Assembly (NCBI GenBank): GCA_000165345.1
Contig: CM000431.1
Span: 192,001-256,000 of the forward strand
DNA: 64,000 nt
Reading direction: 5' to 3'
The notes under the pieces were generated by a model that saw nothing but the letters and a program-made list of their open reading frames with translations, made no database searches and was not told the origin of the DNA. A program made the translations under genes and the position numbers. Positions 26,067 through 61,157 of this stretch are shown piece by piece (positions within the stretch are counted from its first letter, which is position 1; the number at the start of each line of letters is the position of its first letter).

Positions 26067-29000
26067 ATGATCATGACAAAATGGGTATACAATGTTTTTC
26101 TAATATTATTTTTTCAAGCATTTCTGGTGGTATTAGCCTCAACCGAATTTGAAAGCTTTAAACTTGGTAGAGTTGAGCCTCAAAAACTTAAGATTATTTC
26201 AAAAACTACCACCTTAAATGATTATGGTTCATTGGGAGTCTATTCCTTTAAAAATTCAAAAGATGAAGTTGTTATGAAGAGTATTCTCTTTCCTAATTAT
26301 GCAGTATTGTTTGATGAAGATAGAAGACAGTTTTGTTCTGGAAAGTATTCTGCTGACTCTCATACTTACAGTGCAGGCGATCAAATACCTTTTTTCTTAA
26401 ACTATTGGACTGATAAATATACTTATAGATACTGGGTCTTGGAATCTGATCAGGGAGTAATATGTATGCTTCCCTATACATTAGAAACAAACTTTACCAA
26501 AGTTATTACTGAAGTTGATTCAGATTTTCAATTTGAGCTTGCTCCTACTTATGAACCAAACAACACCAATTCAATAATCCAACAAACTCCTTTATTTGAT
26601 TATTCCCAGAGCTGTACTTTAAGTCTATTCCAAGGATGTTTTTCTTCTGAGTTTGTTCTTTCTCTTCCAGACTCTTCTTTTACTTCTGGATTAGAGTTTG
26701 TTGTCAGAGGCTTTTCTGAGTTTAGAACATACAAGGGAGTTTTCTCAGAGCTCATATTTCATGATAAAACAGCTTCAAATGCAAAAATACTACATATCAT
26801 CATTAACCCTGATATGATTGGTATACATCTTGTAGGTACTGGAGATCAAATTTGGGGTAAATTAAAACACCAAGTAGAAATTGGAAATATGAAATTCAAT
26901 TATGATTTTAGAATTATAATCAAAGAAAAATGGATATATATTACTTCTCCACAAGGTCAGACTTTGGTTTCATCTAAACTTCCTGACAATTTCTCCAATG
27001 TAGGTAAGATTGTTTCACCCCAAAGAAGTGTATCAGATCCTACCTTTATACAAGTTCTTTTGGCATCCAATACTGAGATTTCCAAGGATTTCATTCAGAG
27101 TGAAGCTTTTTGTCTTCTTTCAATGTCTCCATTTACATCTCAGGTTGAGAACATCTTAGGATTTAGCCAGGAAGTCCTCTTTACAGAAAATTATCATCTT
27201 GATATTTCTCTAGATATACAATCTTTTGATTCTATTCAAGAAGAGGATCTACTTCTTGGCATCTCTTTTGACGAACTTTTGATTGATCCTGCTAATCTTG
27301 AGATCCAGAGAACTAGTCACTTAACTGATCCTAAACTCAGAATTGGTCTCTTTAAGGGATATATATCCCTGGAAGAAATGCAAAGTAGAACTATTATCAC
27401 TGGCTCATATCAAGCTAGTATTAATTCTAAAGTTACTATTCAAATCCAACCAATTTCTAGTGAAAATAAGCTTAGGATCTTATACAAAATAGATCAGTCT
27501 AATTGGTTTAGGCTTACTGAAGTTTCTGGTGAATTGAATAGGCTTTTCAACAAAATCAAATTTGAGAAGAACTCAAAACATTCAGAGATTCTGAGTTATA
27601 CTATTAAAGGAGAAGCTGATGCATCTTCTCTTGCTACTACCTACACAGATAGTACTCCATTCATATCTCCAACTTCTGATAACCTTTGTAAACTAATGCC
27701 ACTATCGTATTGTAACTCTCAAGATGTATCTTTTGTAATTGAAGATCTTACACAAGTAGAAGGAAAGGATCAAGCAATGGAAGAAGAAACAAGTAAAGTT
27801 GAGTCTTTGATGAGTATTAATAATGTGACCATTCAAATACCAAATTTTCCAACATCCAACAATGATTTAATGTACAAATGGAGACTTTTGTCCAATGATA
27901 TTTCAGTTTATGAGATTTCAGTATTTCAAACTTCCATTTCAATCACGAACTTAATCAGCTATGAGACAATCACAGGACCTCCAATGAGTATTATTAGTCA
28001 ATACTCAGAGAACTTAGGAATCTCAATAATATTTCAAACTACAAAAATCTTCATTGTTGACTCTGGTACTAATAATATTATTGCTTCTATATCTAAATCA
28101 AAGAATCTAAATATTAACAAAATCCAAACATCATATGAAAAAAAGATCTCTGTTAACTATTATTCATCTTATTCATTTACTCCTGGTCCAAAAACAACTT
28201 CAACTGAATCTACTATCCTAAATGTTTTATTTGAATGTCAATTTTTCAATCAATGTAATTATGGAAACTATGTATGTCAAGGTTCTAGTGCGAGACAATT
28301 ATGTAAAGATCCTGAGATCATGAAACTTTGGTATAGTGGTCCTTTGATCTCTACTGATACTTCCTTAAGCCTGGGAGTTTTTCCAAATTCTTTATCTGTT
28401 TTTACTATTGGAAGTCAAAACAAAAATCTATTTCTTATTAATGTATTTGAGAGATATATCTCACTTAGTGATCCATTTTCAGGAAGATCTTGTTATAATG
28501 AGCTTCCAAACAATATAGTACTGAATCAAAACTCTTATGTTAAGTTTGGAGTTATTGTCTCAAATGGAAAAAGAGTAGATCTGGTTTATTTCTCAGGAAA
28601 TGATACTCCAAATCTGTTATGTTCTATAAGTATCCAAGGAAGATTCATCTCTGATTTTTATTTCTTTGAATCTAATGGACAAGGCCTATCATCTACAATT
28701 GGAGATATTACTATGAATACTGAACTGGAGGACTTAAGTGGTCAAATAACAACAATTTCCCCTCCTGCAGAGTCCAATTCTAATAGTTTGGTTCCTTTCA
28801 AACCAAGTAATCAATTAGATTTGGAGCTCAGTTCTGAACTTAAAGCCAATATGGGAGTACATTTTGATGTTAATCTAGATCCTAATTCAGATTCTGCCTT
28901 AGTTATTGGAGTTTCTATTTTAAACAGATATCAGGATATTCATACTCATCTATATATTTCAGGAGGAAGTTATCCTTCAGTAATACTTAGCTCAAATATA

Positions 29001-61157: not shown

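Follow-up and report, generated by a model that had tools for sequence, protein, structure and literature searches.

cgd3_720 of Cryptosporidium parvum: a giant secreted protein of predicted galectin/laminin-G-fold domains and a candidate matrix scaffold of the female stage

Closest described systems and identity of the gene

Human MUC16 (CA125) is a giant tethered mucin with the SEA domain as the repeated module, a huge Pro/Thr/Ser-rich (PTS) region and a transmembrane anchor. Within the genus Cryptosporidium, gp900 (cgd7_4020) is a secreted glycoprotein with very long Thr runs that bear O-linked N-acetylgalactosamine (O-GalNAc) (PMC5549699); it has a length of ~1,900 amino acids (aa), possesses a transmembrane (TM) helix and is a protein of the invasive stage, located in the micronemes or on the sporozoite surface. 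The oocyst wall proteins COWP1-9 are secreted, lack a TM segment, are expressed in females and build the wall; they contain a Cys every 10-12 residues in their type I/II repeats and are readily detected in oocyst proteomes (PMC12548878). Toxoplasma CST1 (SRS44), a mucin-like glycoprotein of the cyst wall, is a secreted apicomplexan protein with tandem beta-rich domains and a Thr-rich mucin domain glycosylated by ppGalNAc-transferases; it makes the wall of a persistence or transmission stage rigid (PMC5225312). Here, a window of 64,000 nucleotides (nt) of C. parvum DNA (GenBank assembly GCA_000165345.1, contig CM000431.1, positions 192,001 to 256,000 of the forward strand) has been analysed with respect to one giant open reading frame (ORF), the gene cgd3_720, and its predicted 11,696-aa protein.

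How does this protein compare? In contrast to MUC16, cgd3_720 repeats modules of predicted galectin/laminin-G (LamG) fold, is unanchored and has a PTS share of 5.3%; sequence homology between the two was not found in Pfam and hidden Markov model (HMM) searches. Compared with gp900, it is six times larger, unanchored, female-specific and built of predicted beta-sandwich domains. Unlike the COWPs, it has 215 Cys along its 11,696 aa (1 per 54) and is undetected in the oocyst proteome; an earlier note made from the sequence alone had called the modules Cys-rich, which is an overstatement. CST1 belongs to the SRS family, is far smaller, resides in the bradyzoite cyst wall and is non-homologous, but can serve as a functional analogy for the role proposed below. 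Searches of Pfam and of the PDB sequences showed no similarity of cgd3_720 to galectins, to tandem-repeat galectins or to the galectin-like domains of the apicomplexan proteins MIC1 and M2AP (Toxoplasma); the canonical sugar-contacting residues are not conserved in cgd3_720, which has extra disulfides and ~53 domain copies per chain. Arrays of laminin G and neurexin LNS domains, extracellular multi-domain binding platforms, provide the best Foldseek matches over all three domains of the repeat unit, whereas cgd3_720, from another organism and context, has neither a Pfam Laminin_G match nor interspersed EGF domains. Orthologues exist in the gastric species: CMU_037990 of C. muris, with 3,523 aa, and cand_033810 of C. 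andersoni, with 3,518 aa, are colinear at ~33% identity. They share the signal peptide, the N-terminal region, the first D domain, the terminal C' and B' domains and two C-terminal alpha/beta domains (domain types are described below), but differ by one central triplet instead of 13, short Thr linkers only and the lack of an acidic tail.

The ORF scan and translation show an ATG start followed by 11,696 codons, with the final codon as the sole stop. With the base composition of the window (stop probability per codon 0.079), the chance of such a stop-free stretch is ~10^-419, which bears out the claim of the earlier note that a single uninterrupted 35-kb ORF cannot be due to chance; in the other two frames of the same stretch, stops make up 5.8% and 14.3% of the codons. 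The GC content of the flanking spacers amounts to 29% and 26%, not to the roughly 20% given previously. Four flanking ORFs are identical to the C. parvum Iowa II proteins EAK89195, EAK89194 (ABC transporter), EAK89193 and EAK89191, and the ORF downstream of the giant gene codes for an alpha/beta hydrolase. The published order on C. parvum chromosome 3 is cgd3_710 'uncharacterized', cgd3_720 'mucin' and cgd3_730 'alpha/beta hydrolase' (PMC6877471, PMC12548878), and cgd3_720 has been annotated as '11700 aa ... Thr repeat (308 aa long)' (Mauzy et al., PMC3305300). As the flanking proteins are exact Iowa II matches and length, signal peptide and 308-residue Thr run fit the annotation, the giant ORF is, judged from both locus and protein features, the annotated gene cgd3_720. 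The finding is therefore a rediscovery: cgd3_720 has been annotated since the first C. parvum genome and is called a 'very large mucin' in transcriptome, population-genomic and serology papers. The published label refers to the identical sequence but is silent on folds, modules, amplification and stage role, which are added here. The additions comprise a fold assignment, a census of the domains, the growth from 1 to 13 triplets, a tract of gene conversion and the notice that a proteome lacks the protein; they are useful leads on an uncharacterised protein of the female stage and do not turn it into a new kind of system.

A long ORF of this kind could have been non-functional or a chimera of collapsed or expanded repeats, the latter being the outcome that the earlier note had named as fatal to its claim. 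The gene is repetitive, the short-read assemblies of C. hominis and C. canis fragment it and the locus is an indel hot spot. Nevertheless, such an artefact or pseudogene is almost certainly not what is seen. The repeats are assemblable, as the modules differ by 35-65% in protein, with DNA identities of just 60-80% for most copies and of 85-96% for the most similar repeat segment, a stretch of ~300-700 nt; for this reason collapse of repeats in the reference assembly is no concern, except for the exact length of the Thr tract. Length and Thr run agree with the published annotation and the gene is transcribed. Fragments of C. hominis are colinear with aa 1-3347, 3467-4539, 4909-5829 and 9740-11696 at 94-98% identity; colinearity extends to proteins of C. 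canis (56-70% identity), C. bovis (47%) and, over 3,220 aa, C. muris (33%). The C. hominis sequence (contig JTAI01000026 of C. hominis 30976) keeps the frame open across 4,300 codons, and comparison of C. parvum with C. hominis gives a ratio of nonsynonymous to synonymous substitution rates (dN/dS, Nei-Gojobori) of 0.136 for 3,234 codons and of 0.178 for 1,068 codons, a clear signature of purifying selection on both the N-terminal region and the modules. With colinear orthologues, these dN/dS values and the negligible chance probability, a chance ORF or assembly chimera has been rejected as effectively refuted, and cgd3_720 is, by comparison of the sequences, a real, constrained gene colinear in five species.

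In the short-read assemblies of C. hominis and C. canis, the one gene is split into at least four 'uncharacterized protein' or 'mucin-like protein, partial' models (P0001, P0002, P0038, P0046, P0036 and P0037), because the contig breaks fall in the most homogenised sub-repeat, comprising linker and D domain; an 'NN' gap lies at the equivalent of aa 3347 (C. hominis JTAI01000026 ~9703-10000). In just those break segments, dN and dS are raised (dS 0.14-0.17 versus 0.05-0.08), which may reflect mixing of paralogues in those assemblies.

Domain anatomy, predicted fold and array amplification

The bulk of cgd3_720 consists of ~53 beta-sandwich domains of three diverged types, termed C, B and D, with 13 C-B-linker-D triplets separated by poly-Thr spacers. 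This anatomy was derived from an alignment of the 13 complete units and from C, B and D sub-profile HMMs of the central array, which were run over the protein. In each module, the poly-Thr spacer is followed by the C domain (~165 aa), the B domain (~178 aa), the linker (~90 aa) and the D domain (~180 aa); the modules start at nt 32850, 34695, 36603, 38544, 40449, 42363, 44379, 47319, 49368, 51246, 53166, 55023 and 57027 (features are collected in Table 1). The B domain opens with four close Cys (GYETCSL.DC.....C.SQV....C), the linker is rich in Pro, Tyr and Asn and strikingly conserved (TPPGYHYNTTTGQFEK...; TPPGYHYNTTTGQFEKNEDHPNPDEINPFQP) with an invariant N-x-T sequon and the motif TPPxYxYN.T..F invariant across modules, and the D domain contains the invariant loop SPQCGPYCSTY. 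Each unit of ~620 aa has 12 invariant Cys in the 13-module alignment, while identity ranges from 39 to 65% to module 4 and from 35 to 65% over all pairs. The loop SPQCGP[YLF]CSTY occurs in 14 copies with a period of ~620-640 aa and PW..C..C.G in 13, and the Thr runs are located between units, in accordance with the poly-Thr linkers described previously. At least 14 tandem modules had been counted at that time; the array comprises 13 complete triplets, with a separate first D domain ahead of it. The C profile weakly matches D and B positions too, and profile-profile comparison with hhalign pairs D with C (93% probability, E 2.7e-7) and B with C (68%, E 4.7e-5), by which the three types are old paralogues.

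Table 1. Features of the cgd3_720 locus, with positions in the analysed window
Feature	Residues (aa)	Position (nt)	Strand	Basis
Putative promoter element cluster, three ACATGC hexamers, 170-280 bp 5' of ATG		25787..25899	+	function inferred
Complete cgd3_720 ORF		26067..61157	+	11,696 codons + stop
Signal peptide, MIMTKWVYNVFLILFFQAFLVVLAS	1-25	26067..26141	+	sole hydrophobic window of protein
N-terminal region, ~11 probable degenerate beta-sandwich domains	26-2075	26142..32291	+	domain HMMs, Cys-pair spacing
First D-type domain, first SPQCGPYCSTY loop	2076-2251	32292..32819	+	HMM 3e-48
Central array, 13 triplet modules of ~605-675 aa	2255-10939	32829..58883	+	alignment, HMMs, AlphaFold model, fold matches
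Homogenised linker + D-domain sub-repeat, modules 2-7		35700..46229	+	nucleotide identity
Giant poly-Thr tract (358 Thr, 2 Ser), between modules 7 and 8	6723-7082	46233..47312	+	translation
Terminal degenerate C' and B', after last Thr spacer	10982-11332	59010..60062	+	HMM (B' 3e-35)
First tentative SEA-like (beta-alpha-beta-beta-alpha) domain	11350-11448	60114..60410	+	model
Second tentative SEA-like domain	11516-11621	60612..60929	+	model, better-modelled half, pLDDT 60-83
Acidic C-terminal tail (15 D/E, 0 K/R)	11640-11696	60984..61154	+	sequence

Both ends of the protein had previously been taken for unique regions; by domain HMMs and Cys-pair spacing, they consist for the most part of degenerate versions of these domain types. 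In the N-terminal region, B-type domains start at aa 724, 1275 and 1820 and Cys pairs of C/D type at aa 183, 541, 1104, 1466 and 1651, with HMM matches for B' at aa 723-860, 1268-1435 (7e-23) and 1813-1988 (4e-43) and for C' at aa 566-704, 1138-1237 and 1650-1777 (2e-13). Since the Cys pairs that open domains recur every ~170-190 aa, ~11 degenerate domains are probably present; along this region, C. muris is colinear with an identity of 33%. At the other end, the terminal C' and B' domains have clear orthologues in C. muris and are followed by a distinct region of ~300 aa and a 57-residue acidic tail, found in intestinal species and in neither C. muris nor C. andersoni. The two alpha/beta domains modelled in the distinct region are tentatively SEA-like; no Pfam SEA match was obtained in aa 10812-11696 and a GSVVV-like autoproteolysis motif is absent from the beta2-beta3 turns.

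The mature polypeptide has a mass of 1.316 MDa, in agreement with the ~1.3 MDa estimated before, and a pI of 4.8. In a heuristic hydropathy test, the sole hydrophobic 19-mer above threshold is aa 7-25 (Kyte-Doolittle 2.22), and the 19-residue scan of the whole protein revealed neither a TM helix nor a C-terminus of the kind seen with glycosylphosphatidylinositol (GPI) anchors, the tail being acidic. The earlier reading of a signal peptide and a free C-terminus is thus upheld, and cgd3_720 is predicted to enter the secretory pathway unanchored. Among the hallmarks of a mucin, a signal for entry into the secretory pathway is found; a large Pro/Thr/Ser-rich share is not, as the Thr/Ser-dense stretches comprise 621 of 11,696 residues (5.3%), namely one tract of 360 aa and 13 short linkers. 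The longest pure Thr run extends over 308 residues (aa 6775-7082). As the 360-residue tract uses all four Thr codons (ACT 160, ACA 100, ACC 65, ACG 33), what is preserved is the amino-acid run, not a pure trinucleotide microsatellite. By the general dimensions of such domains, a chain of ~53 domains with ~620 glycosylated spacer residues would have a contour length on the scale of half a micrometre, as a rough estimate.

Antisense ORFs of 369 and 371 aa (46205-47314 and 46224-47339, minus strand) lie exactly over the poly-Thr tract, because an (ACN)n repeat leaves the opposite strand without stop codons. The tract also causes a sharp dip in GC skew (-0.585) at 46-48 kb.

An AlphaFold2 model of module 4, with the 13 paralogous modules as input alignment, has a mean predicted local distance difference test (pLDDT) score of 71 and contains three all-beta domains (C and B ~80-90, D 65-83) and a disordered linker. 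Foldseek searches against the PDB match this model to laminin-111 LG1-3 (E 5e-10) and neurexin-1alpha LNS1-6 (E 8e-10), and further to laminin alpha2 LG1-3, galectin-8, galectin-9 and adenovirus fibre galectin domains, all arrays of concanavalin-A-like sandwiches. The alignments of 340-720 columns correspond to two or three query domains, whereby those with laminin-111 and neurexin (~680-720 columns) cover all three. The modelled modules thus have the two-sheet beta-sandwich (jelly-roll) fold at galectin size (~130-170 aa), and the fold matches suggest tandem LG-type beta-sandwiches in an extracellular protein; according to the model, the modules are galectin/LamG-fold domains, but no galectins proper. 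When Pfam was scanned with the first 3,500 aa, the last 885 aa and the 13 modules one by one, no match appeared even at E<=10, neither to the Gal-bind_lectin and Laminin_G_1/2/3 profiles nor to the VWD, CysD and cystine knot domains of gel-forming mucins. The B, D and C profiles produced only chance matches, and no lectin, among all PDB sequences.

The search with the module profile HMM through 1.84 billion representative proteins retrieved 10 proteins, from C. hominis, C. canis, C. bovis, C. muris and C. andersoni, which all map to the single cgd3_720 gene; a word-indexed protein search gave two fragments with one module and two with the C-terminal region. The comparison with Pfam and with proteins that had been advised earlier has therewith been made, with no Pfam family and 10 relatives, all from Cryptosporidium. 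As this exhaustive search gave only Cryptosporidium proteins, the family is restricted to the genus at the sequence level, with no paralogous gene. A 717-aa protein (P0047), assembled in Logan from public sequencing data, is a C-terminal fragment of the giant protein with 74% identity to C. parvum and presumably stems from a Cryptosporidium species without an annotated genome.

C. muris CMU_037990, encoded on a 1.3-Mb contig, has the same ends and a single central C-B-linker-D unit with short Thr linkers. Its triplet shares 35-40% identity with every one of the 13 C. parvum modules, while the nearest relative of every C. parvum module is another C. parvum module (mean identity 45%). This pattern fits a 13-fold tandem amplification of one triplet in the intestinal lineage; concerted evolution is a less likely cause. 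Within modules 2-7, the linker and D domain have been homogenised (copies e.g. at 35782-36081, 37696-37995, 39628-39927, 41545-41844, 43486-43785 and 45469-45768): their identity amounts to 0.8-0.93 for nucleotides and 0.8-0.94 for four-fold third positions, as against ~0.55-0.64 and ~0.33-0.74 for the C and B domains of these modules. Pure selection as the cause of this conservation has been rejected, the synonymous third positions being homogenised equally, which indicates gene conversion. In population studies, the cgd3_720 locus has been flagged as SNP-rich and as an indel hot spot.

Expression in female gametes and candidate roles

By reverse transcription PCR over 72 h of culture, cgd3_720 transcript is undetectable at 2-24 h; of its signal, 93% falls to 48 h and 7% to 72 h (PMC3305300). 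RNA sequencing of sorted cells gave log2 counts per million (CPM) of 3.79 in asexual stages, 9.19 in females in vitro and 9.34 in females in vivo (log fold change 5.4), a 42-fold female enrichment that places cgd3_720 within the top 500 female transcripts; in bulk samples, log2 CPM was 5.6-6.0 in sporozoites, 4.5-5.1 at 24 h and 9.2-9.4 at 48 h, and the gene falls into the 48-h cluster (PMC6877471). Since expression is equal in unfertilised in vitro and in vivo females, cgd3_720 belongs to the maternal, pre-fertilisation programme of female gametes. Invasion genes, in comparison, switch on only after fertilisation (PMC13657310). In a 2026 review based on a single-cell atlas, a first female wave contains the COWPs and processing enzymes and a second wave glycosyltransferases and 'mucins and C-type lectin' secreted between parasite and host membranes for wall building, with cgd3_720 itself unnamed (PMC13657310). 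Female cells co-express amine oxidases and many proteases (PMC6877471). At the protein level, IgG to a cgd3_720 fragment was present in 14% of 435 Bangladeshi infants on a protein array (PMC10425216); because infants carry this IgG, the protein is made and immune-visible during human infection.

Another reading, in line with the database label and with the adhesin or mucin proposal of the earlier note, is that of a mucin or adhesin of the invasive stage that would coat sporozoites or merozoites or be shed by them and attach to host cells or mucus like gp900 and gp40/15. The signal peptide and the poly-Thr tracts resemble gp900, papers group cgd3_720 with 'mucins implicated in attachment/invasion', one of them reporting relatively high mRNA in oocysts or sporozoites (PMC7193590), the locus is polymorphic and indel-rich as antigen genes often are, and infant IgG is nominally linked to delayed infection (hazard ratio 0.65, P 0.023, false discovery rate 0.39; PMC10425216). 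However, the transcript is undetectable during the asexual cycle at 2-24 h in culture, low in sporozoites and at 24 h in bulk samples and strongly enriched in females, and it is fully on in unfertilised in vitro females, whereas invasion-machinery genes are on only post-fertilisation in vivo. Furthermore, cgd3_720 was not quantified in excysted oocyst and sporozoite material (PMC12548878), and dN/dS values of 0.14-0.18 signify purifying, not diversifying, selection. A role as invasion-stage adhesin is thus quite unlikely. From the mucin or adhesin reading of the earlier note, the beaded architecture stands; what does not is the nature of the modules, which are lectin-fold by prediction and not Cys-rich, and probably the life-cycle stage, which is female.

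The explanation favoured here, to which we assign an about even chance, is that the macrogamete or zygote would secrete the protein as a scaffold for a matrix or for the building of the wall. The polypeptide, as modelled, would form a long beaded filament of disulfide-braced galectin/laminin-G-fold domains. Consecutive Thr residues are nearly saturated with unextended O-GalNAc in C. parvum Gp20, and Gp900 is modified too (Haserick 2017, PMC5549699). By analogy, the Thr runs of cgd3_720, which its signal peptide would direct into the secretory pathway, may be densely modified with O-GalNAc and act as stiff, hydrated stalks. As its expression suggests, the protein might be stored by the macrogamete or zygote and released, along with the late wall-building wave, into the space that separates the parasite from the host membrane, upon which the lectin-fold domains could act as multivalent binders of glycans or wall proteins and the molecule as scaffold or cross-linker of the extracellular coat of the zygote, be it the oocyst glycocalyx, the fibrillar layer or a transient assembly matrix. 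In the intestinal lineage, the array would have grown from a single central triplet, as in C. muris, to thirteen. The assembly of oocyst wall and glycocalyx is an acknowledged open question (PMC13657310), and cgd3_720, the largest product of a 9-Mb genome, is on only in female gametes, the builders of the resistant oocyst. Its lectin-fold bulk, the invariant loops resembling binding or modification sites, the 13-fold growth of the array and its absence from the oocyst proteome can serve as experimental handles.

Several observations weigh against this scaffold role. In one data set, a deep tandem mass tag proteome of excysted oocysts, cgd3_720 is missing while cgd3_710 and cgd3_730 appear in consecutive rows (PMC12548878, S7 table), despite 301 unique, sequon-free tryptic peptides suitable for mass spectrometry predicted from its sequence. 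Equally, cgd3_720 was not found in the supplements of the Haserick 2017 oocyst glycoproteome, nor is it mentioned in the supplements of the mBio 2023 glycoprotein-complex paper, and the report of relatively high oocyst or sporozoite mRNA fits a female-stage role poorly. With respect to binding, the residues of the galectin sugar site (His-Asn-Arg ... Asn ... Trp-Glu-Arg) are not conserved, with no His, Arg or Glu among the invariant columns of the 13-module alignment and of the C, B and D alignments; on that account, the domains are putative glycan binders at best. Apicomplexan galectin-like domains, such as those of TgMIC1, can be protein-binding modules.

The absence from the oocyst proteome can mean either that cgd3_720 is not retained in mature oocysts, with a transient role around the female, or that it is insoluble or cross-linked. 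In the former case, cgd3_720 would be secreted around the macrogamete, either into the space of the parasitophorous vacuole or to the surface of the gamete, act before or at fertilisation, for example in the capture or recognition of microgametes or as temporary wall template, and then be degraded or left behind, without being part of the shed oocyst. Such a transient matrix or gamete coat has a limited, though real, probability. It is compatible with female-specific expression that is equally high in unfertilised in vitro females and with its absence from a deep oocyst proteome that detects both flanking gene products; early secreted female proteins have been hypothesised to act in fertilisation, where the attraction of males by females is unsettled (PMC13657310), and the many female-specific proteases could remove the protein (PMC6877471). 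Insolubility or cross-linking would, however, equally explain the proteome, infant IgG fits either reading, and the review puts 'mucins', without naming cgd3_720, in the late wall-building wave and not the early one (PMC13657310).

In the latter case, cgd3_720 might even be a self-assembling lectin-glycan polymer, in which the ~53 galectin-fold domains bind O-GalNAc (Tn) clusters on their own poly-Thr spacers or on gp900/gp40-type mucins of neighbouring molecules and a cross-linked, insoluble hydrogel or filament network forms the oocyst glycocalyx or fibrillar layer after secretion from the fertilised macrogamete. We consider this specific extension unlikely. If true, insolubility would explain the escape from proteomics, and the amplification from 1 to 13 triplets would tune the surface or mechanics of the transmission stage.

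Conversely, the beta-sandwiches might bind nothing and cgd3_720 be an inert spacer or polymer brush, a protease-resistant bulk that provides a steric or lubricating oocyst coat via size, charge and glycan hydration. The missing galectin binding residues, the overall acidity with an acidic tail and the plastic copy number of 1 versus 13 triplets, suited to a length-dependent function, speak for it. On the other hand, all 13 triplets have been kept under purifying selection despite 35-65% divergence, the 11-residue loop SPQCGPxCSTY is invariant in 14 of 14 D domains, with a C. muris copy differing by one substitution (S to A), and the linker motif is invariant across modules. As invariant loop and linker motif argue for specific sites of interaction or modification, an inert brush is rather unlikely.

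Promoter region and neighbouring genes

Upstream of the giant gene, two of the three ACATGC hexamers sit in the direct repeat ACATGCAA(N0-3)CCAGTAC (2 matches, 0 expected by chance). The cluster looks like the GCATGC-type apicomplexan promoter element and is a putative regulatory element. Pairs of ACATGC ~55 bp apart also occur upstream of the ABC-transporter gene and of a 1,045-aa ORF and in two other intergenic regions (positions 12531/12586, 17778/17834, 7671/7788 and 61406/61438); about 11 of the 19 ACATGC matches in the window are intergenic.

Downstream, the intergenic segment 61487-61629 contains a T-rich run (~61487-61522) followed by a tiny ORF (~61543-61629) for a near-purely hydrophobic peptide of 28 residues (MVFVIVFIVFALLVTLIVIIIVIVKLTK), which may have arisen by chance in AT-rich DNA.

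None of the seven ORFs around the gene is matched by the C, B or D domain HMMs, and four of them, scanned against Pfam at lenient settings, gave nothing informative. Three ORFs, at 547-3138 (-), 3603-6251 (-) and 18063-21200 (+), differ from the other neighbours in having no exact match in the protein collection; their annotated models probably use other start codons or contain introns.

The upstream neighbour cgd3_710 (21618-25580, +) codes for a 1,320-aa protein that has no Pfam domain and whose N-terminus resembles a signal peptide. It is ~4-fold female-enriched and reaches log2 21.7 in the oocyst proteome compared with 22.5 for COWP1 (PMC12548878), and is thus an abundant uncharacterised oocyst protein encoded beside the giant gene. 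Hydrophobic signal-peptide-like N-termini are seen in five of the seven neighbouring ORFs (547-3138 (-), 3603-6251 (-), 8540-10288 (+), 18063-21200 (+) and 21618-25580 (+)); four of these five are without a recognisable domain, the ORF at 8540-10288 matching a GST C-terminal domain. The giant gene therefore sits among genes for secreted proteins, mostly of unknown function.

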